Shown: piece by piece, positions 11,952 to 61,892 of the stretch
Position numbering within the stretch: the first letter of the stretch is position 1
How the letters are laid out: the number at the start of each line of letters is the position of its first letter
Assembly (NCBI GenBank): GCA_964624785.1
Contig: CAZUXR010000001.1
Coordinates: forward strand, 213 to 64,212
Length of the DNA: 64,000 nucleotides
Source of the DNA: an uncultured Candidatus Saccharibacteria bacterium
Lineage (GTDB): Bacteria; Patescibacteriota; Saccharimonadia; Saccharimonadales; UBA10212
Direction of reading: 5' to 3'
Position numbers and translations under genes: made by a program
The notes under the pieces: model-generated
The model's input: only the letters and a program-made list of their open reading frames with translations
Told to the model about the DNA's origin: nothing
The model's database searches: none

Positions 11952-14900
11952 TCAGCGCTTGTGGTTTGTTAGTAGATAATCTTGCCAGGCTTTTGGCTGT
12001 GAACCATCAATGTCTAAGTCGCCCAAACACTTAACTAGCAGGCGACCGAGTTCGCCGTTGGTAATTAGTGGCAAGTGATTATCGATTGCTACACGCCGGA
12101 TAATGTAGCCGTCGTTTCCATCCAGCCCGTCTTCGGCCGGAATACTGATCATCAGCGATATTTTTTGGTCCGCAATTGCGGATTCTACGCTAGGTTCGCG
12201 GCGGTCTTTGATTTTATAAAGAAGCGTCGTCTGCACCCCGTGCTCTTTAAATAAGTCGTGCGTACCGGGAGTAGTATATACATTCCAGCCCTTTTTGATA
12301 AGCTTTGCCGTAACTTCAACAAACTTGAATTTATATTCATCCGGCAATGCGAGAAACAAATTTTTGCCTTTTAGATTTTGTTCGGTCGCCAACCACGAGC
12401 GCATAAATGCCTCGTCCAAGCTGCTGCCAAAGCAGGCCACTTCCCCGGTAGAAGCCATCTCTACACCCGCCACTGGATCGGCACCTTTTAGTCGATTGTA
12501 AGAAAATTGCGGACTCTTCACTCCAACGTAATCGTACTCCAAAGTTTGGTAGCGAATATTATTTTCTATTCCTAAAATCGCTTCTGCAGCAATTTGTATA
12601 AAGTTGTGCCCGGAAATTTTAGAAATAAACGGAAACGAACGCGACGCCCGCACATTGCATTCAATTACTTTTAGCTGGTTATCTTTGGCAATAAACTGCA
12701 CGTTGAACGGGCCGGTAATGTTTAGGTTGGCGACAATTTGGCGCGTAATATTTTTGGCTCGACGGACTGTTTCTAGATACAAACTCTGCGCCGGGAACAC
12801 CACAGTCGCATCGCCGGAATGTACGCCTGCATTTTCTACGTGCTCGCTTATGGCATATATAATCAGCTGGCCATTACTGGCAACTCCGTCAATTTCTAAC
12901 TCCTTCGCATGAGTAATAAACTGCGAAATCACCACCGGATGGTCGGGCGACAGTTTTGCTGCTTCTTTTAGATACCGGGCAAGTTCTTGCTCGTTACCAA
13001 CTACGTTCATCGCCCCGCCGGACAAAACATATGATGGGCGAATCAAAACCGGATAGCCAACACGAGCCGCAAAAACTTTGGCGCGCGCAAGGCTAGAAAC
13101 TTCTTGCCAGGCGGGTTGATCAATATTGAACTCGCCGAGCATGGCCGAAAATTTTTGCCGGTCTTCTGCGCGGTCGATGTCTTTAGCTTTTGTTCCAAGA
13201 ATCGGATAACCTGCCCGCTCTAGCGGCAACGCAAGGTTGTTAGCAATCTGCCCACCCACGGACACAATAATTCCCTGCGGGCGTTCAAAATCAGCAATAT
13301 CACGCATTCGCTCCAGCGTTAATTCCTCAAAATACAAGCGGTCGGAACGATCAAAATCGGTCGAAACCGTCTCTGGATTGGAGTTAACAATGATTGTTTT
13401 GCGCCCACGGGCCTGCAAAGTTTTAGCAGTATTAACCGCACACCAATCAAACTCCACCGACGAACCGATGCAATACGGACCAGAACCAACCACAACAACG
13501 GCCTTACCGTCCAGTGGCTCAATGTCGTCTTCCTGCCCGTGGTAGGTCGTATAAAGATAGTTAGTTTTAGCGTCAAACTCGCCAGCAAGTGTGTCGATTT
13601 GTTTAATTACGGGTTTGATTCCGAGCTTTAGTCGGCGTCTTCTAATTTCTTCTTCTGTCTTACCTTTTATAAAAGCCAGTGCTTTGTCGGAGAATCCGAC
13701 TTGCTTAGCCGCCCGCAGTAAATCCTCGTTCAGATTATTTTTTTTGACCTCGCTTTCCATATGCGCGATGTCGGCAACTTGACCCAAAAACCATTTGTCG
13801 ATTTTAGACAGATCGTGAATTTTGTCCACGCTTACCCCACTTTTAAGCGCCTCATAAATTGCAAACAACCGCCGATCAGTGGCACGAGTAATTTCTTCTA
13901 ATGGATCGTCAAAATCATGCAGCTCAGTGCTCAGTCCGTCGGCACCAATATTTAGCATACGCACTGCTTTTTGCAGAACTTCTGGGAACGACCGCCCCAA
14001 AGCCATAACTTCTCCCACGCTCTTCATTTCTGATCCAATTTGATGGTCGCTAGATTTTAGTTTGGTTAGATCCCAACGCGGCATTTTTAGTGCCAAATAA
14101 TCCAGCGCCGGTTCGTAAAATGCCGATGTTTGACCAGTCACAGCGTTTTTAAGCTCAGGCAAAAGCTTGCCCAAACTCAGTTTGGTTGCCACGAATGCCA
14201 GCGGATAGCCGGTCGCTTTAGACGCTAGCGCGCTGGAACGGCTAAGCCGAGCGTTAACTTCAATAACCCGATAGTCGCCATTTTCTGGGTTAAGGGCGTA
14301 CTGGATGTTGCACTCGCCAATTATTCCTAAGTGGTTAATGGTTTTGATCGCTACTTCACGCAAATGATGATATTCGCGGTTAGTTAAAGTTTGCGACGGT
14401 GCCACCACAATGCTCTCGCCAGTGTGAATTCCCATTGGGTCAAAGTTTTCCATGTTGCAGACCGTAATTGTGTTGCCTGCTCGGTCGCGCACAACTTCGT
14501 ATTCGATTTCTTTCCAGCCGCGCAGGTATTCTTCTATCAAAATTTGTGGGGCCGCTTTAAACGCCGGCGCGGCTTTTTTGCGAAGTTCGTCTGCATTGTT
14601 TACCCTGCCCGACCCCAGTCCGCCAAGACTAAAGCCCGAGCGCAGCATTACCGGATAGCCGATTTTTTCGGCCGCCGCAAGCGCTCCGCTTAAATCATAC
14701 GTGGCGATACTGCGAGCTGTTTTAATATCAATCTGTTTTAGCGCATCTTTAAAAAGTTCGCGGTCCTCGGTTATGTTGATCGTGTCGACCGGAGTACCCA
14801 GAACTTTAATGCCAAGTTTTTTAAACACGCCGATTTCGTATAATTTTAGTCCCAGATTTAGCGCGGTCTGGCCGCCAAAACTTAGCAGTACGGCGTCTGG

Positions 14901-27432: not shown

Positions 27433-28887
27433 ATGAAATTAGGGTGGAATAGCAACGTAAAAGCAACTGACAGCGAAGCAGAACTTGCTCACATCACGCA
27501 GGAAATCTATAAACGCAACCTAGAACTATCCGAGCGCAACAAAACTCTGCTTTTATTGCAACATATCGACGAGGCGGTTTTAAGTTCAACCGGTCAGCTT
27601 AGCGCCGTAATTCAAACAATCACCGACTTGCTAATTAGCGAGGGCGAGTTTGGATTTGCATCGATTTACCTGGCTGGCAAAAGTAGTAGCCTTGGCACGG
27701 CGCGCGGCTTTAGCACGAGCAAAACCATCCGCCCCGAACGTTTGGATTTAATAAAAAATCAGTTTGGCGCGCTCAACCTTACTCCGTCAAAAGACAACGA
27801 TCTATCCTATGCCATGCTAAGCGGAGATATTCAGGTTATTACTAGTTTCCGAGGGTTCAGGCCAGAGATTTCGGAAGAAGACGACGCTTCGCTAAAGGCC
27901 CTGCTAGAGGTCGACACGTTCTTTATATGCCCCCTTAAGTCCACCGGCCAAAGCTTGGGCGTAATGATTATCGGTCTGGTAAAAACCGCCGCATCTGTAA
28001 GCGAATACAAGATGAACCTAATTAAACGCCTTACAAACTCAATTAGCATAGCCGTACAAAACTACCTACTCTACGAAGAGCTAGAAGTCGCTAGCGATAA
28101 ACTTACCGAGCAGAACGCCACCCTGCAAAAGCTGAATCATTTAAAAGATGATTTTATGTCTATGGCAACGCACCAGCTTGGCACACCAATGGCTGTTGTG
28201 GATGGGTATATTTCTACAGTTATTCACCCAACGCACGGCGCTAATGTTAATAAGGATGAGCTACTGGGCAAAGCGCTTGCACGTCTGCGGCTTATGAAGC
28301 GTTTGGTCGAGGATTTTCTAAATGTGAGTCGAATGGAAACTGGACGATTTATAATTACCCGCACGCCAACCGATCTAAATAAAATGGTAGAGCAGGAAGT
28401 CGAACTTCTCGCGCAAAAAGCCAAAGAAGAAAATATAGAATTAAAATACAAAAAACCTGATCATCAGGTGCCGGTAATTTCTATCGATGAGCAAAAAACC
28501 CGCCAAGCAATCATGAATTTGATAGACAATGCCATCTACTATTCACCCGGAGCTACCGTAACAGTCAGCCTAAAGTCAGATGAACAAAATATCACTTTTC
28601 AGGTAGAAGACAGCGGAATTGGAATCGATGAGGAATCGCAAAAAAACTTATTCACCAAATATTACCGTGCAGACAACGCTAAAAAACAACGCCCCGACGG
28701 CAGCGGAATCGGCCTGTTTTTGGTCAAAAAAGTTATACAAGCCCAGGGCGGCCGATTGATTTTTAACAGCCAGCTGGGCGTAGGATCAACTTTTGGATTT
28801 ATCTTGCCAATAAAAAATCCCCCTGAACCAGAACAAGATATAGGACTGCCCAGCGAGCCAAAAATGCAACCCGAAACAGAAATTTAA
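27433..28887 (+). CDS. cytoplasmic sensor histidine kinase (GAF-like, HisKA, HATPase_c)
   Basis: H-box FMSMATHQLGTPM, N-box NLIDNAIYYS, G1 DSGIGI and G2 GSGIGLFLV. No TM segment. Confidence 0.85.
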   Translation: MKLGWNSNVKATDSEAELAHITQEIYKRNLELSERNKTLLLLQHIDEAVLSSTGQLSAVIQTITDLLISEGEFGFASIYLAGKSSSLGTARGFSTSKTIRPERLDLIKNQFGALNLTPSKDNDLSYAMLSGDIQVITSFRGFRPEISEEDDASLKALLEVDTFFICPLKSTGQSLGVMIIGLVKTAASVSEYKMNLIKRLTNSISIAVQNYLLYEELEVASDKLTEQNATLQKLNHLKDDFMSMATHQLGTPMAVVDGYISTVIHPTHGANVNKDELLGKALARLRLMKRLVEDFLNVSRMETGRFIITRTPTDLNKMVEQEVELLAQKAKEENIELKYKKPDHQVPVISIDEQKTRQAIMNLIDNAIYYSPGATVTVSLKSDEQNITFQVEDSGIGIDEESQKNLFTKYYRADNAKKQRPDGSGIGLFLVKKVIQAQGGRLIFNSQLGVGSTFGFILPIKNPPEPEQDIGLPSEPKMQPETEI

Positions 28888-30413
28888 CTGTGAGTTTTTA
28901 GTTCCGCGACGGCATCCTCGCCAAAGTGTTTTTTGAGTCTGGCTCGGATGGAGCCGGGGTGGCGACCAAATTCCTCGGTTAATTTTTTGACTGTAATCGG
29001 CTTACCTGCAGAAAAGAACCCTACCAACCTAGCATCGTCATCCGCAGACCACGGTTTATATGCATTTGGATATTTTGAACGCATTTTATCCAGCTTGTCA
29101 TTCCAGCTCCCACTAGATTTTATTATGATCGGCTCCTTAGAACGCTTACGTGCGCTTTCTCTCAAATGTTCGAACTTTTTAGCATCAATAACTGACTTTT
29201 TGCGCAATGTTTTATCTATCTCGAGAGCCTCGGGGCTTACCCGAAGCGCCATTTGGTTAATCCCTGCCAGGCTCAAAGTGTCCAAGCTGCGCACTCGGCT
29301 TAATGCCACATAGCCCATGCCTTCCACAAACGCCCGGCGTAAATCAATCCGTGCAGCGTCCAATGTCATTCCCTGACTTTTGTGCACCGTGATCGCCCAG
29401 GCTAGCCGCAGCGGAATTTGGCTCAAAGACGCACGTTTTTTGTCACCGTCGCGTAGCTCCCACGACTCCGGCGTAATTACTAATTTGCGGCCGCTTTTAA
29501 GTTCAACTTTTGGGTAGCCCGTTCCCTCTTCAAAACCCACAACCGTGCCGAGCGATCCGTTGACATACTTTTTTTCCGGATTATTTTTTATGCACATAAT
29601 CAACGCGCCTTTTTTTAATGTAAGAGTTTCTGCCGCCAAACAAGCTCGCTTGAGTGATTCCACATAGCTGGCTTTTCCGGTGGTACTCATGTGATATTGG
29701 CGCTCTTCGCTATCTAGTTTATGAAGCTGGCTAGAGTTTAGCTCGTCTACATCTACGTTTGTGGTGTGCAGCTGCGTAGCTTCGCCGACGTCCGCACTTT
29801 GGCGCGAAAGCAAAAGTTCCGCGTGGTGTCGGCGTATATCATTGCCCCTCAGCGCGTTCAAAATTTCTAAAAACTCATCGTCGTTTTGGCGATGCTGTTC
29901 GCTCAAATAACAAACTACCGGGTCTAGTTCTTCCCATACAACTGAATTCACCACAAATTCGCCAAGCTCCTCGCCGCGCTTGCTTACCGGGGGCAGCTGG
30001 AAAAAGTCGCCGCAAATCACCACCTGTAAACCGCCAAAAGGTTCGTTGACTTTACGCACGCTTCGCGCAATCTGATCTACCATATCCAGGCGAAAATGAT
30101 GCAGCATAGAAATCTCATCAATAATCAAAACATCTGTTTTAGCGATTGTGTCACGTCGGCCTTTAGTTAAATTTTCTATGATCCCAGGCGCCAGCTGGTT
30201 GTGGATTCCTATTCCGCTCCACGAATGTATGGTGTTGCCGTTTAGATGAGTCGCAGCCAATCCTGTCGTTGCCGTAACAGATACATGTTTGCCACTAGCC
30301 CGGGCGCGGCGAATAAAATCATTCAGAACAAAAGTCTTGCCAGAGCCTGCTGGCCCGGTCAGCAAAACGTTCTGCCCAGCTAACAGAATCTCTAGCGCAA
30401 GTTCTTGATCCAT
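28884..30413 (-). CDS. PIF1/RecD-family AAA_30 helicase with C-terminal helicase-associated HTH tail
   Basis: Walker A LLTGPAGSGKTF, Walker B VLIIDEISML, and the C-terminal motif ITVHKSQGMT. Confidence 0.85.
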   Translation of the reverse strand: MDQELALEILLAGQNVLLTGPAGSGKTFVLNDFIRRARASGKHVSVTATTGLAATHLNGNTIHSWSGIGIHNQLAPGIIENLTKGRRDTIAKTDVLIIDEISMLHHFRLDMVDQIARSVRKVNEPFGGLQVVICGDFFQLPPVSKRGEELGEFVVNSVVWEELDPVVCYLSEQHRQNDDEFLEILNALRGNDIRRHHAELLLSRQSADVGEATQLHTTNVDVDELNSSQLHKLDSEERQYHMSTTGKASYVESLKRACLAAETLTLKKGALIMCIKNNPEKKYVNGSLGTVVGFEEGTGYPKVELKSGRKLVITPESWELRDGDKKRASLSQIPLRLAWAITVHKSQGMTLDAARIDLRRAFVEGMGYVALSRVRSLDTLSLAGINQMALRVSPEALEIDKTLRKKSVIDAKKFEHLRESARKRSKEPIIIKSSGSWNDKLDKMRSKYPNAYKPWSADDDARLVGFFSAGKPITVKKLTEEFGRHPGSIRARLKKHFGEDAVAELKTHS

Positions 30414-30419
30414 CTATGA

Positions 30420-30580
30420 ATAGTTTATCGTTTTTGGTTTATGGTTGATAGTTTTTTTCAAAAATCCGAATCTCCCAGATTATTTCCGGGGTTTAATTCT
30501 GGAAATATGGGTTCTGGCTTCCTGCTTTTTTGCTCTGGACTACCGGCTCTCAGCTACAAGCTAATCCGAACGGTTTTTAT
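30420..30580. repeat. phase-locked heptanucleotide mosaic, copy H
   Basis: About 23 consecutive 7-mers in one register. The blocks are ATAGTTT ATCGTTT TTGGTTT ATGGTTG ATAGTTT, then AAATCCG AATCTCC, then TTCTGGA AATATGG GTTCTGG CTTCCTG, then GCTCTGG ACTACCG GCTCTCA GCTACAA GCTAATC. It overlaps the DUF167 stop. Confidence 0.7.
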
Positions 30581-33230: not shown

Positions 33231-33620
33231 TCAGGATTTATTGGGTTTGGAGTGATTTTTAAACCAGGCAGCGATTGCTGGAACATTCAGGTGTTCTACC
33301 GCCACCCGCACCGCAAAATCCTCCAGCTCTTTAGGCAATGCTACCGGCTTATAACCATTTCGCATCAAAAATAGCGACGCCAAGGTAATCGCTGAGCGCT
33401 TATTTCCGTCCACAAACGGATGGTCGGCAATGATAGAGCGTACGTAAACTGCCGCTTTTTCAAATACGGAGGGATACAGCTCCTTACCAAAAACATCTTG
33501 TGCCGGAGCCGCCAAGGCGGACTGCAGCCGTCCTTCATCGCGTACCCCGTGTGAGCCGCCAAATTCTTCGATAATCACATGGTGTAAGAGCAATAACTCT
33601 TCAATATCAAAATAACGCAT
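33231..33620 (-). CDS. doc: Doc (death-on-curing) Fic-fold toxin
   Basis: Fic/Doc motif HPFVDGNKR. 129 aa, 6 nt downstream of a small AbrB-type gene. Confidence 0.85.
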   Translation of the reverse strand: MRYFDIEELLLLHHVIIEEFGGSHGVRDEGRLQSALAAPAQDVFGKELYPSVFEKAAVYVRSIIADHPFVDGNKRSAITLASLFLMRNGYKPVALPKELEDFAVRVAVEHLNVPAIAAWFKNHSKPNKS

Positions 33621-33626
33621 GGTCAG

Positions 33627-33848
33627 TTATCTCTGCGAAAGGTTTTTAAGAGTTTCGCTGTATTGCTGCTTGAATTTCTCGTAGTCCGTCAGTAATTGTT
33701 CGTTTTTAGTTACTTTTTCTGTTGGCTGGAGCGTAACATCAACTTCGCTACCTGCCATAATACCGGCACTACGAGCCTCACGAGCCGGAATAGTAACCGC
33801 CAGGCTACTGCCAACTTTTATAACTTTTTGAATAGATTTAATGGTCAT
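33627..33848 (-). CDS. AbrB/MazE/SpoVT-type antitoxin
   Basis: VIKVGSSLAVTIPAREARSAGI is a swapped-hairpin AbrB motif. 73 aa, immediately upstream of doc. Confidence 0.75.
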   Translation of the reverse strand: MTIKSIQKVIKVGSSLAVTIPAREARSAGIMAGSEVDVTLQPTEKVTKNEQLLTDYEKFKQQYSETLKNLSQR

Positions 33849-42398: not shown

Positions 42399-43655
42399 AT
42401 GGATAAAATTAAAACAGTTGCAATTCTTGGCCGGCAGAAGTCGCTGGGACTTGCCGAACTAGAAAGTCTTTATGGCGCGGAGCATGTGCGCTCCTTGGGC
42501 GACAACGCCGCTGTTTTAGATATTCCAGCCACGGAAATGGATTTTAGACGGCTTGGCGGCGCTGTAAAGCTTGCCCAGGTACTGGCCGAACTACCTACCA
42601 CCAACTGGCCGGACATGGTTAAGTTTTTGGGCGATAAAATTCCTGAGCATATTCAATACATGCCAGAAGGCACCTTTACACTTGGGGTAAGTGTTTATGG
42701 AATAGTGGTTAAGCTAGAAACCTTGAACAGAAATTTACTTGGAATCAAAAAAATTATTAAAGCTGCTGGCAAATCAACGCGAATTGTACCTAATAAATCG
42801 CTGGGACTTAACAGCGCCCAAGTCCTGCACAACAAACTCACAACCAAGGGTGGCTGGGAGCTAATATATATTCGCGATGGCGAGCACACCTTGCTGGCAC
42901 AAACTTTATTTATTCAAGATATCGAGGCCTACGCAGCGCGAGATCAAGCCCGTCCAAAACGCGATGCCCGAGTGGGAATGCTACCACCAAAGCTAGCGCA
43001 GATTATGGTCAACCTTGCCAGTGGCAAGGTCGGGTCACCAGTCACTAGTCACCAGTCGACAGTCACCGGACAAACGACTGGCGACCGACCACTAGTGACT
43101 AACAAGCCTTTGGTTTTGCTAGATCCATTTTGTGGCACCGGCGTAATCCTACAAGAAGCGCTATTAATGGGCTATACAGTCTATGGTACGGATGCGGAAC
43201 CGCGAATGATAGATTATACCAAAGCCAATTTAGACTGGCTTGATTTGCGTGGCGCCAGCAAAGAAGGGCGGATTGAACTAGAAGTAGGCGACGCTACAAA
43301 ACATCAATGGGCTCCACCCCCCAATCTTGTAGCCAGCGAAACATACCTAGGCCGGCCGTTCACTTCCCCGCCGCGACCCGAAATTTTAACCCAAAATATC
43401 AGCGACTGCAATGTAATAATTAAAAAGTTCTTGAGCAATATCCACTCGCAATTAGAAAGCGGGACAAGATTATGCCTGGCTGTGCCGGCTTGGCAAGTTC
43501 AGCCCGGGGTATTTAAGCACTTACCTCTTATTGACCAAGTTGGCAATCTGGGATATAATCGACTGAGCTTTGTTCATGTCAAAGATCAGGATTTGATCTA
43601 TTACAGACCAGACCAAATCGTTGGACGTGAACTAATCATATTAGCTAGAGTATAG
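42399..43655 (+). CDS. THUMP-like / UPF0020-type RNA (guanine-N2 or adenine-N6) methyltransferase
   Basis: Motif I LLDPFCGTGVIL preceded by PPKLAQIMVNLA. Start at the ATG at 42399; the upstream ORF extension overlaps the convergent 41294 gene. Confidence 0.7.
   Translation: MDKIKTVAILGRQKSLGLAELESLYGAEHVRSLGDNAAVLDIPATEMDFRRLGGAVKLAQVLAELPTTNWPDMVKFLGDKIPEHIQYMPEGTFTLGVSVYGIVVKLETLNRNLLGIKKIIKAAGKSTRIVPNKSLGLNSAQVLHNKLTTKGGWELIYIRDGEHTLLAQTLFIQDIEAYAARDQARPKRDARVGMLPPKLAQIMVNLASGKVGSPVTSHQSTVTGQTTGDRPLVTNKPLVLLDPFCGTGVILQEALLMGYTVYGTDAEPRMIDYTKANLDWLDLRGASKEGRIELEVGDATKHQWAPPPNLVASETYLGRPFTSPPRPEILTQNISDCNVIIKKFLSNIHSQLESGTRLCLAVPAWQVQPGVFKHLPLIDQVGNLGYNRLSFVHVKDQDLIYYRPDQIVGRELIILARV
43034..43103. 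repeat. in-frame heptanucleotide array inside the methyltransferase gene
   Basis: GTCACCA GTCACTA GTCACCA GTCGACA GTCACCG GACAAAC GACTGGC GACCGAC CACTAGT GACTAAC. It encodes SPVTSHQSTVTGQTTGDRPLVTN just before SAM motif I. Confidence 0.75.
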
Positions 43656-43671
43656 AAGGACAGATTAACAG

Positions 43672-43944
43672 ATGAGTAAAACCAAAGCAGGCGGTACCGC
43701 CAAAAATATCCACGACAGCCCCGGCCAACGACTGGGTGTTAAAGTATACGGCGGCCAAAAAGTTAAAACCGGCAATGTTATTGTTCGCCAAGTCGGTTTA
43801 ACTAAGCGCGCTGGTGCTGGTACCTTTTTAAGCCGAAATTACACAATCCACGCCGCAAAAGACGGCACCGTTAAATACGTTAAGCGCCGCGTTAAACACT
43901 TTAGCGGACGTTCAGTTCCTCGCACCGAAGTAACCGTTGAATAA
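43672..43944 (+). CDS. rpmA: 50S ribosomal protein L27
   Basis: KAGGTAKNIHDSPGQRLGVKVYGGQKV..GNVIVRQ.G matches the L27 signature. 90 aa. Confidence 0.9.
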   Translation: MSKTKAGGTAKNIHDSPGQRLGVKVYGGQKVKTGNVIVRQVGLTKRAGAGTFLSRNYTIHAAKDGTVKYVKRRVKHFSGRSVPRTEVTVE

Positions 43945-43950
43945 AAACTA

Positions 43951-44097
43951 GCTCTAAGCTAAGAGCCCAGAGCTTAGAGCGGGCTTCAAGGTTTATGGTT
44001 TGTAGTTTATGGTTTTTGGGCTAACGCCGAACGCTAGCTTTTTTCATTCTCTATTCTCAATTCTCTAATTCCTGCTCTTAAGCTAAGGACTCTTAGC
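43951..44097. repeat. phase-locked heptanucleotide mosaic, copy A
   Basis: 21 consecutive 7-mers in one register. The blocks are GCTCTAA GCTAAGA GCCCAGA GCTTAGA, then TTATGGT TTGTAGT TTATGGT TTTTGGG, then CTAACGC CGAACGC, then CTCTATT CTCAATT CTCTAAT, then CTTAAGC TAAGGAC TCTTAGC. The first block forms a 10-bp hairpin (43951-43980). Confidence 0.8.
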
Positions 44098-45707
44098 TAT
44101 AGTGCTGCTTTTATAAGGCCTAGGAACAACGGGTGGGCTCGGCCGGGTCGAGAGCGAAATTCCGGGTGAGCCTGAGTGGTTACAAAATACGGATGATCAA
44201 TGGCTTCTACCATTTCTACTAGCTGCCCGTCGGGCGATACGCCGGATTCTATAATTCCCCACGATTTATAATCCTTACGATAATCGTTATTGGCTTCGTA
44301 GCGGTGGCGATGACGCTCGATAATATTTTCGGCTCCGTAGAGTTTACGAGCCTTTGTTCCAGATTTGATTACGCAGGGATAATCGCCTAGGCGCATCGAC
44401 GCACCGGTGTTTTCTTTGCCTTTTTGATCTTCCATGGTGCTTACAACGGCGTGTTTAGGTTTAGGATCAAACTCTGTAGAATTAGCACCGGCTAAGCCCG
44501 CTCGGCGAGCAGCAGCAATGATCCCAACCTGCAGCCCCAGACAAATCCCTAGGTATGGCAATTTATTATCAAGAGCGAAGGCGGCGGCGGCAATTTTGCC
44601 CTCTACCCCGCGCCCACCAAATCCGCCAGGAACAATGATCCCGTCTAGGTCGGCCAAAACATTAACGGCTTTTTTGTCTTTTTCTAGGTCTTCGGCATTA
44701 ACCCATACAATATCTACATTGCATTCGTTAGCCCAGGCTGCGCTTCGCACCGCCTCGAATACAGACATATAGGTGTCTTGATTGTCGATATACTTAGCTA
44801 CCACGCCAATTCGTACGGTTTTGCGGTAATTAGCTAGTGCAGACTTAACCGTGCGCTCCCAGCTCTTCATATCGGGCTTATGAGCCTTTAGACCTAGGCG
44901 CTTAACGATAATATCGGCGATATTGGTGGACTCTAGAGTTAGCGGCACCTGATAGACAGTTTGAGCATTTGGCATCAGCACGATTGCTTCTTTGTCCACG
45001 CCACTAAATAGGCTTAGTTTGGGTATAACCGCTTTAGCTGGGGGCTTAGATTCGCTTCGGGCTGCCAGAACATCTGGCACAATGCCAAGTCCGCGAAGCT
45101 CACGGACAGAATTTTGCGCTGGCTTAGTTTTAAACTCACCACTGGCGCCCAGATATGGAATGTAAACAACGTGCACGAACATGCAGTTTTCTAGCCCAAC
45201 GCGCATGGACATTTCGCGGATGGCTTCTACAAAGCTCAATGATTCGTAATCGCCAACCGTGCCGCCAATTTCTGCGATGTGCACGTCAAAACCTTTGCCA
45301 GCACGCTCGATATACCCTTGGATGGCAGCAGTTAAGTGCGGAATAATTTGTACGTCTTCGCCTTTATATTTACCGGCGCGTTCGTCGCTGATAACTTTTT
45401 GCAGGACTTGCCCGCTCATCAAGCTGCTGCTTTGGGTCAGCTCCTCGTCTAAAAATCTTTCGTAGTGGCCAAGGTCCAAGTCTGTTTCTGCACCGTCTTT
45501 GGTTACAAAAACTTCGCCGTGTTCACGCGGATTTAACAGCCCAGCATCAACGTTTAGGTACGGGTCGCACTTTTGGATGTTAACGGATATTCCGCGGGCT
45601 TTTAAAATGGTGCCGATAGAAGCAGCCGTAATGCCTTTGCCAACGCCGGATAAAACCCCGCCGGTCACAAAAATATACTTAGTCTGCGGCTTAGTCCCTA
45701 GCGCCAT
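44097..45707 (-). CDS. pyrG: CTP synthase
   Basis: N-terminal KYIFVTGGVLSGVGKG, GATase domain GICLGLQ, and HPEF near the C-terminus. 536 aa. Confidence 0.95.
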   Translation of the reverse strand: MALGTKPQTKYIFVTGGVLSGVGKGITAASIGTILKARGISVNIQKCDPYLNVDAGLLNPREHGEVFVTKDGAETDLDLGHYERFLDEELTQSSSLMSGQVLQKVISDERAGKYKGEDVQIIPHLTAAIQGYIERAGKGFDVHIAEIGGTVGDYESLSFVEAIREMSMRVGLENCMFVHVVYIPYLGASGEFKTKPAQNSVRELRGLGIVPDVLAARSESKPPAKAVIPKLSLFSGVDKEAIVLMPNAQTVYQVPLTLESTNIADIIVKRLGLKAHKPDMKSWERTVKSALANYRKTVRIGVVAKYIDNQDTYMSVFEAVRSAAWANECNVDIVWVNAEDLEKDKKAVNVLADLDGIIVPGGFGGRGVEGKIAAAAFALDNKLPYLGICLGLQVGIIAAARRAGLAGANSTEFDPKPKHAVVSTMEDQKGKENTGASMRLGDYPCVIKSGTKARKLYGAENIIERHRHRYEANNDYRKDYKSWGIIESGVSPDGQLVEMVEAIDHPYFVTTQAHPEFRSRPGRAHPLFLGLIKAAL

Positions 45708-45869: not shown

Positions 45870-45907
45870 AATCAAATAAAATAAGCGATCGCTTATTTTA
45901 TTTGATT
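45870..45907. repeat. 38-bp perfect palindrome with GCGATCGC core
   Basis: AATCAAATAAAATAAGCGATCGCTTATTTTATTTGATT lies between the S41 peptidase stop and the pyrG start. Confidence 0.9.
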
Positions 45908-45969
45908 CGTTTAATAGTTCAGGGTTCAGAGTTTTATGTTCTTGAACTTTAGCTTCTATAAACTCTCGG

Positions 45970-50387: not shown

Positions 50388-50906
50388 TTATATTCTGGGT
50401 AGAGTAACGCCAGTTTTAAGAGACACTTCTTTTGCCCAACTGATCATAATGGCAAGTTTTTGCTCTAGCTCTAAAGATTCTTGAGCTTTAAGATTGGGAT
50501 GTCGTTTTTCTAGAGCAACTATCCGCATATAAATTTCTTTGATATCGCTTTCTACGCCCATCAGGCGATTGTCGATTTTTTCCATCCACTCGGCCATTTC
50601 CTGGTGCCCGCGCTCCAGGCTGGTCATTCGACCTTCCAGGCTTCCCATGCGCCCTTCTATATTTTCCATACGTCCATCAAGACTCTCAAAGCGCTGGTCA
50701 ATCTGCTCAAAACGCTGGTCAATCTGCTCAAAACGCTGGTCGACTTGCTCAAAACGTTTATCCATATTTATAGCCAAAGCACCGATCGATTCGGCAACAC
50801 TTGTAGCGAGATCACTGATCGACTCAGCAATATCGTTCACACTTGCCGTAAGAGTGCTTATCGACTTGGTAATGTCATCCTTATTTGTGCTTCCCGTAGT
50901 TGCCAT
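50388..50906 (-). CDS. coiled-coil protein with tandem 7-aa (21-nt) repeats
   Basis: FEQVDQR FEQIDQR FEQIDQR FESLDGR MENIEGR MGSLEGR MTSLERG. The underlying 21-nt tandem repeats span about 50620-50765. Confidence 0.6.
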   Translation of the reverse strand: MATTGSTNKDDITKSISTLTASVNDIAESISDLATSVAESIGALAINMDKRFEQVDQRFEQIDQRFEQIDQRFESLDGRMENIEGRMGSLEGRMTSLERGHQEMAEWMEKIDNRLMGVESDIKEIYMRIVALEKRHPNLKAQESLELEQKLAIMISWAKEVSLKTGVTLPRI

Positions 50907-51492: not shown

Positions 51493-52575
51493 TTAGATGT
51501 TGTGTTCGAGCCAGGATTCGATTAGGGGGTCTAGGTTGCCGTCTAGGACGGTTTGGGGGTCGGAAGTTTCGTAGCCGGTGCGCAGGTCTTTGACTTGTTT
51601 ATAGGGGTGTAAAACGTAGCTGCGGATCTGATTGCCCCACTCTGCCGATTGATTTGGGCCTTTAAGCTCACTCAACTTTTCGGCGTGCTGTTGCAGTTGC
51701 AAGGCCGCCAAGCGGGAGCGCAAAATCGTCATGGCTGTTTCTTTGTTTTGAACCTGAGAACGCTCGTTTTGAATACTTACCGTTAGGCCGGTTGGAACGT
51801 GCGTTATGCGCACAGCCGAGTCGGTGGTATTTACTGATTGGCCGCCGTGGCCGCCAGCACGATAAACGTCAACTTTAAGATCATTGTCATCAATTTCTAG
51901 CTCGCCAGGTTTGTCGATTTTTGGCATTACCTCTACCTTGGCAAAACTGGTTTGGCGCAGGTTGTCGGAATTATAAGGGCTCAACCGCACCAGGCGGTGC
52001 ACACCGTGCTCGCCCGCTAAACGGCCGTACAAAAAATTACCGCCGGAAAGTTCGAGTACAGCGCTTTTTATCCCGGCTTCTTCTCCAGAAGTTTGAGAAT
52101 CGGTTTGGACTTTTAGCCCGTGCTTTTCGGAGTAGCGAACATACATGCGCAGCAGCATAGCAGCCCAATCCTGAGCATCGGTGCCGCCCGCGCCGGCGTA
52201 AATTCCTAAAATTACATCGTGGTTGTCGTAGGGGCCACTAAAGCGAAGCTCGCGCTTAAGGGACGAGAATTGAGAATTGAGAATTGAGAATTTAGCTTCG
52301 AGTTCGGGCTCTAGGCTGGAATCATTTAGGCTAATTAATTCCGCTAGTTCGCGGGCGTCTTTTTGCAGGTTTTCCCAGGGTTGAATGCGAGAACTAAGCG
52401 CCGATTCTTGCTTACTTATATCCTGAGCCTTAGTGCTATCTTGCCAAAAATCCGGCTCCGCTATAGCAGTTCGCAAACCCGCTAATTCCGACTTTAGTTC
52501 ATCTAATTTTAGCTGAGCAACCGTCTGGGTAATGTCTTTATTAAGCTCACTAGCCCGCCTTTTAAGCTGTTCCAC
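51493..52575 (-). CDS. prfB: peptide chain release factor 2 (uninterrupted ORF, no programmed frameshift)
   Basis: GGQ motif (GGHGGQSVNTTDSAVRITH). The RF2-type recognition loop reads LVRLSPYNS (SPY at the SPF position). Confidence 0.9.
   Translation of the reverse strand: MEQLKRRASELNKDITQTVAQLKLDELKSELAGLRTAIAEPDFWQDSTKAQDISKQESALSSRIQPWENLQKDARELAELISLNDSSLEPELEAKFSILNSQFSSLKRELRFSGPYDNHDVILGIYAGAGGTDAQDWAAMLLRMYVRYSEKHGLKVQTDSQTSGEEAGIKSAVLELSGGNFLYGRLAGEHGVHRLVRLSPYNSDNLRQTSFAKVEVMPKIDKPGELEIDDNDLKVDVYRAGGHGGQSVNTTDSAVRITHVPTGLTVSIQNERSQVQNKETAMTILRSRLAALQLQQHAEKLSELKGPNQSAEWGNQIRSYVLHPYKQVKDLRTGYETSDPQTVLDGNLDPLIESWLEHNI
52265..52292. repeat. four perfect GAGAATT heptamers (AATTCTC on the coding strand) inside prfB
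   Basis: gagaatt occurs 4 times at 52265-52292 and encodes AKFSILNSQFS in RF2 domain 1. The same 7-mer occurs in the intergenic mosaics. Confidence 0.9.
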
Positions 52576-52663
52576 GCGGAACTCCTTCGGAGTTATTTAT
52601 CATTTGCCGCTGCGTATTTTTCATTAATTTCATCATCTATCATTTTACACTTGAACGATACTA

Positions 52664-52747
52664 GCGTACAGCGGCCAGGGGTTAGCGGACAGGAATTTCG
52701 GATCTGAACGCTAAACGCTATACGCAGTACGCTAGCCGGTTTATATA
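52664..52747. repeat. heptanucleotide mosaic, copy D (partial)
   Basis: GCGTACA GCGGCCA GGGGTTA GCGGACA ... GAACGCT AAACGCT ATACGCA GTACGCT AGCCGGT TTATATA. The AACGCTA block shares about 30 nt with copy B. Confidence 0.65.
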
Positions 52748-53473: not shown

Positions 53474-53645
53474 CTGTCTTTCGCTAGTCTTGCTTGTAGG
53501 GATTTTTGAGGATTTTAACTAAACGCAAAATACACGTTTGATCAAAAAGAACCTCATATCTATTTATAAAAAGTGCTAAAACCCCGATAAACCTCGAAGG
53601 CAATAGCTATATTATAAAACAGCCATCAGCAAAAAGCAAAGATCC

Positions 53646-53799
53646 GGCTTTGAGTTATGGTTTGTAGTTTATGGTTTATGGGCTAACCCTGAACACTAAA
53701 CGCTATCCGCTGTACGCTTTTCTTCATTCTCAATTCCCCATTCTGAATTCTAAATTCCTGGTATTTAAGCTCTGGGCTCTCAGCTCTTAGCTTCCCAGA
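53646..53799. repeat. phase-locked heptanucleotide mosaic, copy B
   Basis: 22 consecutive 7-mers in one register. The blocks are AGTTATG GTTTGTA GTTTATG GTTTATG, then GGCTAAC CCTGAAC ACTAAAC GCTATCC GCTGTAC GCTTTTC, then TTCATTC TCAATTC CCCATTC TGAATTC TAAATTC, then TTAAGCT CTGGGCT CTCAGCT CTTAGCT. It overlaps the last codons of the M16 gene. Confidence 0.8.
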
Positions 53800-55075
53800 G
53801 GGGTTGGATAGTTTCGTTCAGCTTATCCGTCAAAGCGCGAGTTTTACTATCACCCAGCAGCCCTAACCCGCCAATTCCATCACTAAACATGCGCTCCGAT
53901 GCCCGCACAATACGGCTTTTAGTTATGGCTTTAATGCGTTTTGGAATAGCGTCGTAATCGTCGATTACATTATCAAAGTAGTAGCGGCTAGAGTAGCCGG
54001 ACATAATTCCGCCAACAGTCTGGCCACTGCGCTGGTAGCGCCCTAATAGGTACTGCTTTGCGGCCTCTAAATCTTCTTCGCTGATTTCCCCTGCCCGCAC
54101 GCGGTTGACCTCACGGACGATGATTTCAAACAGCGGCAAAGCGTTTTTAGGAATCACCTGCGCGCCAAACCACCATACCGAACTGTCTTTTGTGGTGTCT
54201 AAATTAGAGCTCATGGAATAAACCAGTCCGCGCTCGCGGGCTTCGCCCAAAATACGTGAATTTAGAGTAGCAGTTAGCATAGTGTTGACCAGCCCAAGCG
54301 CGTCCCATTCCGAGTCCGAAAAGCGATGATTAGCAAACGCGTCAATATAAAAATGCGTAGTATTAACAGATGGGCGCGACACAAAAACGGGCTTTGGTGG
54401 AGCACTCGGAAGTTCTGATGGTAACTCAATTCGCTCGCGGCCTTTTGGTAGTCCGATATTTTCTAGCAGTTGTTTGATTTGGCTGGTGCGCCCCCGCAAA
54501 TTACCGGCAATTATAAACCGCATATTGCGGGTAGTGTGGGTGTTTTTGTAATGCTCTACAACATCTTTTAGCTTAACGTTTTTCATTAGTTTTAGGCATT
54601 CGCGGTCGGTCATGGCCAGCAGCCCATAAGCCTGACGAGTCACAGCATGCAAGTGCAAAAAGTGGTTGTTTGCCCGAGCCGCACGCTCGTCTTTCACGTT
54701 ACCAAATTCGGCCTTAAATTCGTCGCGCAAAAAAAGCGGCTTGCTAATTGCGGTAAGCATTAGCTCTAGCACGCGTTGCCACTCAAAGTCGGCGGCTTCG
54801 GCTTCGTAGGTTACATGATATGTGCTGGTGTGTGCATTAGAATACGCACCGTTTTTTTCGAACTCTGCCTGAAACGCCCGCGCTTTTGGATATTGCTTAT
54901 TAGCGCCAAGCAGTACATGTTCCATTAAATGCGGAGCTTCCCATTTGTCTTTTGGTACCAGGTATTCGCCCGCTCTAAAGTTAAATTCATAATCCATAAC
55001 AGTGGCGCCAGGCACATCGATCAAAATACCTTTTGCGCCATTTTTTAGTTCAATCTCGGTTGCGGTGTGCTTCAT
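53780..55075 (-). CDS. M16-family (pitrilysin/insulinase-like) zinc peptidase
   Basis: Inverted zinc motif HLMEH (HxxEH) near the N-terminus. 431 aa with two-lobed M16 architecture. Confidence 0.85.
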   Translation of the reverse strand: MKHTATEIELKNGAKGILIDVPGATVMDYEFNFRAGEYLVPKDKWEAPHLMEHVLLGANKQYPKARAFQAEFEKNGAYSNAHTSTYHVTYEAEAADFEWQRVLELMLTAISKPLFLRDEFKAEFGNVKDERAARANNHFLHLHAVTRQAYGLLAMTDRECLKLMKNVKLKDVVEHYKNTHTTRNMRFIIAGNLRGRTSQIKQLLENIGLPKGRERIELPSELPSAPPKPVFVSRPSVNTTHFYIDAFANHRFSDSEWDALGLVNTMLTATLNSRILGEARERGLVYSMSSNLDTTKDSSVWWFGAQVIPKNALPLFEIIVREVNRVRAGEISEEDLEAAKQYLLGRYQRSGQTVGGIMSGYSSRYYFDNVIDDYDAIPKRIKAITKSRIVRASERMFSDGIGGLGLLGDSKTRALTDKLNETIQPLWEAKS

Positions 55076-55131
55076 GGAATTAGAATCTCGAATTTGGATT
55101 ATGGAATTTGGAATTAAGATTTATCGAATTT
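55076..55131. repeat. heptanucleotide array, copy C (GAATNNN block)
   Basis: GGAATTA GAATCTC GAATTTG GATTATG GAATTTG GAATTAA GATTTAT CGAATTT fills the M16-secA intergenic gap. It is the reverse-complement type of the NNNATTC block of copy B. Confidence 0.75.
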
Positions 55132-55146
55132 TTCAAAATATGTCCT

Positions 55147-61070: not shown

Positions 61071-61892
61071 CTATGGCCTAAGCGTACCGGCAAAAACTTG
61101 CCAAGCAAGAGCCGTTTTAGCAATTAGACTCAAAATAATATACACACGTTCGCCGTAAAGATAGTTCGACCAATGTCCAATCTTTTTGTACTGCAAGTAC
61201 ATATTGACGGCAAAGCTGCTAAATAAGATAAACAAACTAATGTAGATCGCGTACACAAAGCCAGGAACACCGCTTCCGTAGGTGTGAGCACTCCAAGTAT
61301 AGATCGCCAAAACAACCCATGGAGCCACGCCGCTCAGGCAGCCCACGTAGTAATTTGCCCAGTCAACTTTGTCTGAATTCTGGTTGCGCAGTTCCATTAC
61401 TAAGCCGGACAAACTCATGATTGCTACAAGAATAAAGATCATTACCAAACTAGAAAAGTCAAAAATGCCCGAAAGAAGCGCGATCCCCACCATCATCGTG
61501 CTGGCAGAAACAGAATATTCTATCCAGCGAGCGCGGTTAATACCCTTCTTAAGATCAGCTTCATAATGTTTGCGATAGCGGGTAGCCACAATCATGTGAG
61601 CAGCCGCACTCATAAAAAAGAACGCGGCAACGATGTAGGCAAGATTAATATCAAATAAGTGACGGCTGGCACTGGCTAAAACTGGGTGTCCACTGGACGT
61701 AGAAGCGACTTTGTCTAAAGCTAAAAAGTTAGTGGTAATCGGCTGGGAGCCATGGCTTGGATCGCTGATAACAAGCACTAATATACCCTGTAATGCGTGG
61801 GTGGCGGCCGCTATTAGATTGTACTTTCGCAGATTTTTGAATGTAATTTTTCCGGACTTTGGAGCTAAGCTTAATTGTTTAGGGACCCTCAT
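61071..61892 (-). CDS. heliorhodopsin (7-TM retinal protein, inverted-topology family)
   Basis: Collinear by eye with heliorhodopsin 48C12: NRARWIEYSVSASTMMVGIA (counterion Glu), VPGFVYAIYISLFILFSSFAVNMYLQYKKIGHWSNYLYGERVYIILSLIAKTALAWQVFAGTL (Schiff-base Lys in SLIAK), N-terminal THALQ and AAAHMIV His positions. Confidence 0.85.
   Translation of the reverse strand: MRVPKQLSLAPKSGKITFKNLRKYNLIAAATHALQGILVLVISDPSHGSQPITTNFLALDKVASTSSGHPVLASASRHLFDINLAYIVAAFFFMSAAAHMIVATRYRKHYEADLKKGINRARWIEYSVSASTMMVGIALLSGIFDFSSLVMIFILVAIMSLSGLVMELRNQNSDKVDWANYYVGCLSGVAPWVVLAIYTWSAHTYGSGVPGFVYAIYISLFILFSSFAVNMYLQYKKIGHWSNYLYGERVYIILSLIAKTALAWQVFAGTLRP

Follow-up and report, generated by a model that had tools for sequence, protein, structure and literature searches.

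A heptamer mosaic between rpmA and pyrG

The window analysed here is a 64,000-nucleotide (nt) stretch of contig CAZUXR010000001.1 from the uncultured Candidatus Saccharibacteria assembly GCA_964624785.1. It carries the ribosomal protein L27 gene rpmA (43672-43944, + strand, stop codon 43942-43944; PF01016 in an orthologous locus) and, convergent with it on the right, the CTP synthase gene pyrG (44097-45707, - strand, stop codon 44097-44099). The stop-to-stop spacer of 152 nt is filled by a mosaic of tandem heptanucleotides, here called mosaic A. The window has a G+C content of 45.9%, and its genes are closest to those of Candidatus Saccharimonadales / Saccharibacteria, as judged from pyrG homology and local synteny. 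Among species-representative genomes, pyrG identity to the best relatives is 65-75%, while the next closest protein after the sole 100% match is 80% identical and comes from a 2.2-kb contig. When the pyrG and L27 proteins of the window were looked up by exact match, no conspecific strain was on record.

Mosaic A (43950-44096, no strand assigned) was delimited by lag-7 identity and unit parsing, and comprises 21 abutting 7-mers in five blocks, with zero spacer bases between units, followed by CTA, the pyrG stop codon. The first-pass annotation of this DNA had described the same 21 units and five blocks in a frame that proves to be one base off. At lag 7, 73/141 positions match (0.52, where 0.25 is expected; binomial 1.4e-11); the harmonics at lags 14 and 21 reach 0.43 and 0.36, and other lags at most 0.31. 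Block 1 (43950-43984, +) consists of five units of the AGCTnAG type (AGCTCTA, AGCTAAG, AGCCCAG, AGCTTAG and AGCGGGC). Block 2 (43985-44019, +) has five units of the GGTTTAT type (TTCAAGG, TTTATGG, TTTGTAG, TTTATGG and TTTTTGG) and contains a 23-nt run identical to copy B, described below. Block 3 (44020-44040, +) has three units of the GCTAACG type (GCTAACG, CCGAACG and CTAGCTT), and block 4 (44041-44068, +) four of the ATTCTCn type (TTTTCAT, TCTCTAT, TCTCAAT and TCTCTAA), the same unit as that of an array inside prfB (52265-52292). Block 5 (44069-44096, +), with four units of the CTnAGCT type (TTCCTGC, TCTTAAG, CTAAGGA and CTCTTAG), is the inverted counterpart of block 1 and adjoins the pyrG stop codon. 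The ends of A had been described as imperfect inverted copies of each other, and terminal arms of 20 nt (43957-43976 and 44079-44098) are indeed 85% complementary. The individual arrays are short (3-5 units) and imperfect, with Tandem Repeats Finder (TRF) scores of only 36-56.

Alignment places a second copy, B, at 53617-53800 (+), with the blocks ordered and oriented as in A. From 53661 onward it has 19 units in register, and over 53655-53796 its lag-7 identity is 0.60. Its left arm is degenerate (AGCCATC, AGCAAAA, AGCAAAG, ATCCGGC), and its right block overlaps the stop codon of an M16 peptidase gene (53780-55075, -). The longest exact run common to A and B is 23 nt (TTATGGTTTGTAGTTTATGGTTT, at 43993 and 53655), and GGGCTAAC, TTCATTCTC.ATTC and AATTCCTG also occur in both with their order kept. 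The collinear homology and the order of the stretches quoted in the first-pass annotation thus hold, but a quoted 26-mer is present only in A (the shared run being the 23 nt above), and one quoted pattern needs three wildcard positions rather than two. Local alignment of A with B gives a score of 83, compared with 16.4 +/- 2.4 for mononucleotide shuffles and 24.5 +/- 5.0 when the heptamers of B are permuted (500 trials, maximum 48, z = 11.7). Since the score lies far above the unit-permuted null, the likeness is collinear homology and not low complexity, the alternative that the earlier annotation had itself raised. The blocks of A and B contain different numbers of units, and variant units occur at matching positions in both (GGTTTGT, then AGTTTAT), which indicates that the block was copied whole and that unit numbers diverged afterwards.

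A probable third copy, C (30414-30570, +), is related to A and B by borderline local scores (z = 2-3), so that the further copies anticipated by the earlier annotation extend, on weaker evidence, to a third locus within the window. On its left, a GGTTTAT-type block adjoins the start codon of a PIF1-like helicase gene, and on its right, TTCCTG...GCTCTGG...CTCAGCT overlaps the stop codon of a DUF167 gene. The end blocks of C are spaced similarly to those of A and B, while its interior differs from both and its ends lack complementarity. In all three copies the AGCT-type end adjoins or overlaps a minus-strand stop codon (that of pyrG, the M16 peptidase gene or the DUF167 gene), and the AGCTnAG unit, read on the strand of that gene, provides TAA, TGA or TAG. 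The PIF1-like helicase gene (28884-30413, -, PF05970, 1e-36), which adjoins mosaic C on its downstream side, was considered as a link to repeat biology. This lead was dropped because the protein has more than 8000 highly similar homologues, and so looks widespread and conserved, and because its closest relatives lie in heptamer-free contexts; its presence does not track heptamer richness.

Relatives were compared across 80 related loci (about 1.3 Mb, labelled L001 etc.), in which a profile of A, B and C detected no more members. A metagenome scan with a degenerate GGTTTAT-block pattern returned at least 120 stretches, with no member of the family and no conspecific contig among them, and the plasmid and phage collections gave no match to A. 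Among all sequence compared, the A/B/C family is confined to the window. Long GGTTTAT / GGTTTAG satellites were seen beside TTTAGGG-type telomere repeats on contigs L093, L107 and L177; these are probably eukaryotic (algal) subtelomeres, and their GGTTTAT satellites are unrelated to mosaic A.

Seven-nucleotide periodicity extends well beyond these copies. With sliding 49-nt windows and a threshold of >0.6 identity, lag 7 gives 109 windows, lag 3 gives one, and the other lags from 4 to 12 give none. The hits form eight period-7 regions in the 64 kb, six of which lie in or overlap intergenic DNA, which makes up roughly 11% of the window. They comprise A, B, the two end arrays of C, two further spacer arrays (52650-52735 and 55076-55131, no strand assigned to either), and arrays inside prfB and a methyltransferase gene. 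The array at 52650-52735 is an inverted pair of AACGCTA/CGCTGTA type that forms a long hairpin upstream of prfB (-33.9 kcal/mol, z = -3.9) and has units in common with block 3 of B. That at 55076-55131, found by the period-7 scan, consists of GGAATTn units and fills the spacer between secA and the M16 peptidase gene up to the start codon; it contains no Shine-Dalgarno sequence and has less structure than its shuffles (z = +2.2 to +2.7). The units are diverse (GGTTTAT, GCTAACG, ATTCTCn, AGCTnAG, GTCACCA and GGAATTn in the window), and the related loci hold dozens of other period-7 units.

Several other features of the window were recorded in passing. A coiled-coil gene (50388-50906, -) carries 21-nt (7-amino-acid) tandem repeats at 50614-50657 and 50685-50756 (3.4 copies, 92% identity); 21 is three times seven, and no 7-nt sub-periodicity was detected in them. 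The spacer upstream of pyrG contains a near-perfect AT-rich palindrome (AAATCAAATAAAATAAGCGATCGCTTATTTTATTTGATT, 45875-45912) that may be an operator or a terminator. A heliorhodopsin gene is present at 61071-61892 (-, PF18761, 1e-88), and neighbouring genes for a Fic/DOC-family protein and a MazE-like antitoxin (33231-33848, -) probably form a toxin-antitoxin module.

Empty and filled junctions in related genomes

The convergent pyrG/rpmA arrangement is found in 70 of the 80 related loci. In 11 relatives the gap between the two genes is only 1-60 nt (e.g. 1 nt in L026, 4 nt in L001 and 12 nt in L023), and the orthologous sites are therefore empty, in line with the earlier suggestion that empty sites be sought in relatives; the gap is 16 nt in L018 and 20 nt in L019. 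No heptamer structure was seen in the gaps displayed among those 11 relatives. In L009 the gap is 123 nt and is occupied by a heptamer mosaic of other units (GATCAAn / GAACATA), which cannot be aligned with A.

Four further junctions (ftsE/ftsX, secA/M16, ctpA/pyrG and methyltransferase/rpmA) measure -16 to +30 nt in most relatives, as against 70-170 nt, with lag-7 identity of 0.4-0.7, in L009, L022, L016, L026, L002, L041 and L052. For example, ftsE and ftsX overlap or lie less than 15 nt apart in most genomes, but are separated by 142 nt in L009, 130 nt in L022 (lag-7 identity 0.70) and 103 nt in L041. At the secA/M16 junctions of the window (55076-55146), L002, L009 and L026, the arrays reach the M16 start codon and stand where the heptamer-poor L001 has a strong AGGAGG. 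Such arrays next to start codons are less structured than shuffles and occur in place of a Shine-Dalgarno sequence.

The heptamer-rich genomes (the window, L002, L009, L013, L016, L022, L024, L026 and L041, with L029 as an outlier) fall mostly in one clade of a concatenated 8-protein tree, interspersed with heptamer-poor genomes. By accession, JACPKF01, JBEKOJ01, JACPKG01, JBBDKW01 and JAQGHE01 are examples of the heptamer-rich Saccharimonadales genomes, and DATIHL01, JACDFN01 and OZ246413 of the heptamer-poor ones. The two nearest relatives by the PIF1-like helicase (78% and 77% identity) have zero period-7 regions, and one of them has a 37-nt spacer, an empty site, at the position of C. Short-read contigs of the L009 genome start or end inside mosaics (L201 positions 5932, 11689 and 12727), which suggests that the mosaics are multi-copy repeats that break assembly.

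Dense heptamer mosaics were also observed on the unrelated environmental contigs L124, L119, L137 and L143 (31-55% G+C), and the mosaic architecture is therefore probably not confined to Saccharibacteria. The mosaic at L124 3024-3227 (Ga0209863_10000225) is nested and inverted, and reads [AAAGCCn]n [TATCGTn]n [ACGATnn]n [GGCTTTn]n.

When all mosaics were compared with one another, a second composite family emerged, 'ATTTACC', which is palindromic and has the layout [CATTTAC]n [CATTTnT]n, loop, [AAATGnT]n [GTAAATG]n. Its copies are usually followed by a GGAGG Shine-Dalgarno sequence, often immediately ahead of the downstream start codon. Three are found in L022 (2687-2768, 4112-4183 and 6191-6357), and others in L026 (4509-4634), L009 (5911-6040), L024 (9278-9377) and L021 (10351-10432). 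The copies occupy non-orthologous junctions in five species and score 9-18 standard deviations above the unit-permuted null, a distribution indicating that composites are copied whole between sites and that families persist across species.

Arrays also occur inside genes. In prfB (51493-52575, -), a helix of release factor 2 (RF2) is encoded by a 7-nt array in six heptamer-rich genomes, with four AATTCTC units on the coding strand in the window (52265-52292, -). The unit is AATTCTC also in L002 (3301-3383) and L009 (3950-4024), AGCTCTC in L022 (4515-4606) and L026 (4908-4993), and GAATCTC-like in L016 (4615-4674). The 7-nt pattern is present in none of about 17 other genomes having the region. 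The RF2 alignment is free of gaps, i.e. the array preserves length, while the charged peptide type (ELERQLVDLENDYEELKEDL in L001) gives way to an xSxLxSQ-like one. Gain or loss of a single unit would shift the reading frame of this essential gene, and the turning of an RF2 helix into heptamer arrays at constant length is the most striking side observation of the analysis. In the methyltransferase open reading frame (ORF) just upstream of rpmA (42399-43655, +), five GTCACCA units and their inverted partner (43034-43100, +, RNA fold z = -3.5) lie in frame in a linker before the DPFCGTG methyltransferase motif. This linker is expanded in the window, L009 (array at 12471-12528), L016 (12532-12612) and L022, with different units, by 17-19 amino acids in three of the genomes and by 54 in L022. 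The genic arrays fit a frequent process at the DNA level that is filtered by selection.

Folding of mosaic A and comparison with known repeats

The 10-base-pair (bp) hairpin that the first-pass annotation had noted in the first block is present, with fully complementary arms (43951-43960 and 43971-43980; 100%) and fold energies of -16.7 and -16.3 kcal/mol on the two strands. It had been proposed to terminate rpmA, but the direction is wrong. On the + strand, in the direction of rpmA, the hairpin is followed by GGGCUUCAAG and has no U tract, whereas on the - strand it is followed by the U tract AGUUUUUAUU, which overlaps the rpmA stop codon. The terminator predicted on the - strand (43974->43950) has 11 pairs, the tail AGTTTTTATT and an energy of -16.3 kcal/mol; it is the top terminator-like site in 14 kb and sits about 125 nt past the pyrG stop codon. 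As the U tract is on the - strand only, the hairpin looks like a terminator in the direction of pyrG. The sole terminator-like site facing rpmA is a weak hairpin followed by U6 (44018-44044), formed by block 3 (44018-44040, then T6; -6.0 kcal/mol on the + strand and -9.9 on the - strand). Block 5 has a 7-bp hairpin of its own (-12.1 kcal/mol), and when A is folded as a whole its two ends pair (-47.9 kcal/mol, z = -2.4 on the + strand; -46.9 kcal/mol, z = -3.6 on the - strand). Terminator-like matches in the region are in modest excess (27, against 17.3 +/- 3.9 in shuffles). Given this modest enrichment, the relatives without a hairpin at the junction and the mosaics inside operons, any terminator activity of A is probably at most incidental. 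Mosaic A resembles an intrinsic terminator in having a GC-containing stem-loop (11 pairs) and a U-rich tail on the - strand. Unlike a plain terminator, its terminator-like sites form part of a much larger repeat, the strong one is oriented towards pyrG rather than rpmA, and the pyrG/rpmA junction of relatives lacks a terminator.

The closest precedent in overall form is the short tandemly repeated repetitive (STRR) sequences, heptanucleotide repeats reportedly described in heterocystous cyanobacteria by Mazel et al. in 1990 (see PMC4692102). As in mosaic A, STRR sequences are tandem 7-nt units in short, mostly intergenic arrays at many loci per genome; as in the window, one genome holds several families of units, with some inverted pairs among them and no assigned function. 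The window has tandem heptamers at many loci in the same manner (eight regions, six of them intergenic or overlapping intergenic DNA), but none of the STRR1 (CCCCAGT), STRR2 (TTGGTCA) or STRR3 (CAACAGT) units occurs in it even twice in tandem. The hosts also differ (heterocystous cyanobacteria versus Saccharibacteria/Patescibacteria), and, unlike in STRR sequences, several unit types here abut without spacers, and the resulting composite of about 150 nt is dispersed in its turn.

According to the accounts of Mrazek et al. 2007 given in PMC4679880 and PMC4692102, heptamers are over-represented among long simple sequence repeats (SSRs) with units of 5-11 nt in many bacterial genomes, and polymerase slippage is proposed as the cause. 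The window shares with these SSRs the period-7 excess over neighbouring periods (109 windows, against 0-1 at neighbouring lags), the intergenic bias and the patchy phylogeny; unlike them, its arrays are short and imperfect, form ordered mosaics and have homologous copies at different loci. Other heptamer systems include the TAACTGA repeats of marine Beggiatoaceae, cyanobacteria and Bacteroidetes (MacGregor 2015, PMC4679880) and the GGGAATC / GGGGAYT repeats of Xanthomonas and Nostoc (Rehm et al. 2015, PMC4692102); modest reporter effects of heptamer repeats have been described in a Nostoc preprint (bioRxiv 10.1101/2022.06.06.494920). Like the arrays in the window, the TAACTGA and GGGAATC/GGGGAYT repeats lie beside gene ends, some adjoining start codons that lack a Shine-Dalgarno sequence and some inverted between convergent genes, and across related genomes they keep their position but differ in length and sequence. 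They have one dominant unit per genome, whereas the window has many, combined into mosaics. None of the window units is G-rich, and they hence have no G-quadruplex potential.

Mosaic intergenic repeats of other kinds are also known, among them the pneumococcal BOX and Neisseria Correia elements, which resemble miniature inverted-repeat transposable elements (MITEs). Repetitive extragenic palindromic (REP) sequences, bacterial interspersed mosaic elements (BIMEs) and REP doublets forming hairpins (REPINs) are further intergenic repeats (PMC3116915). Mosaic A is similar to all of these in being about 100-200 nt long, multi-copy, intergenic and hairpin-forming, in its modular build with a number of internal modules that varies between copies, and in its absence from the orthologous sites of relatives. 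For its dispersed, modular and hairpin-forming side, MITE, REP/BIME and BOX-type elements are the nearest analogues. It differs in that its modules are 7-nt arrays rather than 35-60-nt units, and in that the terminal arms are not preserved in all copies. REP, BIME and REPIN sequences are based on an imperfect palindrome of about 20-40 nt, often in inverted pairs, and are linked to a gene for a REP-associated tyrosine transposase (RAYT). The blocks of A contain hairpins of 7-11 bp, but its basic unit is a 7-mer, and no RAYT was found among 60 ORFs of the window. In the literature, no paper describing heptamer repeats in Saccharibacteria or Patescibacteria was found.

Origin of the mosaics and its meaning

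Mosaic A is probably a non-coding repeat, one member of a small dispersed family consisting of A, B and probably C. The account we favour, at somewhat better than even odds, is that A is a lineage-specific heptanucleotide-array repeat that arose by slippage in 7-nt steps, acquired inverted blocks and was copied between intergenic sites, with the hairpin and terminator features as by-products. According to this account, in one Saccharimonadales clade, spacers that are tiny in relatives would fill with heptanucleotide arrays, often in inverted blocks. Replication slippage or transient misalignment at a 7-nt step would generate the arrays, new unit variants would then be amplified locally, and strand switching may create the inverted arms. 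Either illegitimate or ectopic recombination or mobilisation in trans would place copies of whole composites at other intergenic sites. As RNA or single-stranded DNA, A could form a long imperfect stem between the two convergent genes, offering a terminator-like hairpin and U tract to transcripts in the direction of pyrG and a weak one to those in the direction of rpmA. This structure is probably a tolerated or mildly useful by-product and not a required function. The diversity of the units speaks against one sequence-specific binding site and in favour of a process that inherently moves in steps of 7 nt.

Several points weigh against this account. Slippage alone cannot explain composite copies at unrelated sites, and a dispersal step for which no enzyme is known must therefore be assumed. 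The offsets between A and B (+18, +6 and +8) show that the indels are not clean multiples of 7, and the L009 genome, the one population sample covered, has mosaics that are 100% identical to the metagenome-assembled genome in three independent short-read assemblies (L201-L204, Logan). Hairpin formation was considered as a general property of the mosaics and holds only partly, with 22% of mosaics across the heptamer-rich loci folding at z < -2, compared with 5.6% of control segments. The ATTTACC family spans species whose pyrG is only about 70-73% identical to that of the window, a persistence that could reflect selection for function. In addition, the evidence from the host genome itself comes from a single 64-kb window.

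A rather unlikely alternative is that A is a non-autonomous mobile element (MITE- or REPIN-like), the terminal blocks of which are recognised by a transposase encoded elsewhere, while the arrays serve as binding sites or decoration. The 20-nt imperfect terminal inverted repeats of A, the three related copies in 64 kb, the empty sites in relatives (pyrG/rpmA and upstream of PIF1), the palindromic ATTTACC composites at non-orthologous junctions in five species, and the L009 short-read assemblies that break inside mosaics, as multi-copy repeats would cause, are all consistent with mobility. The MITE-like outline proposed in the first-pass annotation is not supported as a MITE in the strict sense. 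On inspection, the ends of A show no target-site duplication (flanks ...AAAAACT / ATAGTGC...) and coincide with both stop codons, the left arm of B is degenerate, and the ends of C are not complementary. In a Pfam scan, 60 ORFs of the window proved to be housekeeping genes only; none was a transposase, RAYT or reverse transcriptase, and neither the plasmid nor the phage collection contained a match to A. A mobile element would also leave unexplained the 7-nt periodicity of unrelated families and the arrays inside genes, including the length-preserving RF2 array.

That A is instead a selected cis-acting element (a bidirectional terminator or insulator, a stabiliser of mRNA 3' ends, or a platform for an RNA- or DNA-binding protein with a footprint of about 7 nt) appears unlikely. 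The strong stem-loop and U tract on the - strand, with the GC-containing stem predicted for an intrinsic terminator, the weak hairpin and U6 on the + strand, and the better-than-shuffled folding of the whole of A would suit such a role, as would the conservation of the ATTTACC family across species. The unstructured arrays that replace Shine-Dalgarno sequences (55076-55131; L002, L009, L026) parallel the TAACTGA repeats, for which binding of cold-shock or S1-type proteins was suggested (MacGregor 2015, PMC4679880), and the Nostoc reporter evidence indicates that heptamer repeats can modulate expression (bioRxiv 10.1101/2022.06.06.494920). However, close relatives manage with a pyrG/rpmA spacer of 1-20 nt and no hairpin, and mosaics occur inside operons, e.g. 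between ftsE and ftsX, where termination would be harmful. No single binding protein would suit units of such diversity, the excess of terminator-like matches over shuffles is only modest, and Rfam 15 gave no match at or above the gathering score anywhere in the window.

More speculatively, and in our estimation a long shot, a clade-specific process of copying at a 7-nt offset, whether a polymerase or repair peculiarity or a repeat-writing enzyme, may rewrite intergenic and even conserved coding DNA, such as the RF2 helix overwritten at unchanged length in six genomes, and spawn self-propagating composite hairpins. Just as tentatively, these composites would carry their own stop codons or Shine-Dalgarno sequences. 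If true, ultra-small bacteria would thereby harbour a class of genome parasite, or a form of genome architecture, that has not been described before. The last explanation, that chance low complexity or faulty assembly produced the pattern, is highly improbable: short, imperfect arrays with low TRF scores would be in keeping with it, but it is refuted by the lag-7 statistic of A (with no other period behaving alike), by the A/B score over the unit-permuted null, and by mosaics in many independent assemblies, including one genome identical in three.

For annotation, the mosaics matter in that they inflate intergenic regions, can mimic terminators, MITEs or small-RNA genes, and coincide with the ends of short-read contigs in one related genome. 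To our knowledge, bacterial heptanucleotide repeats have had no accepted origin or function since 1990. Because Saccharibacteria have small, tightly packed genomes, non-functional DNA should be purged from them fast. The same junctions, filled in some relatives and empty in others, offer clean material for separating mutational origin, mobility and function, and the composites dispersed within and between species, together with the genic arrays limited by tolerance, likewise help to separate the three.

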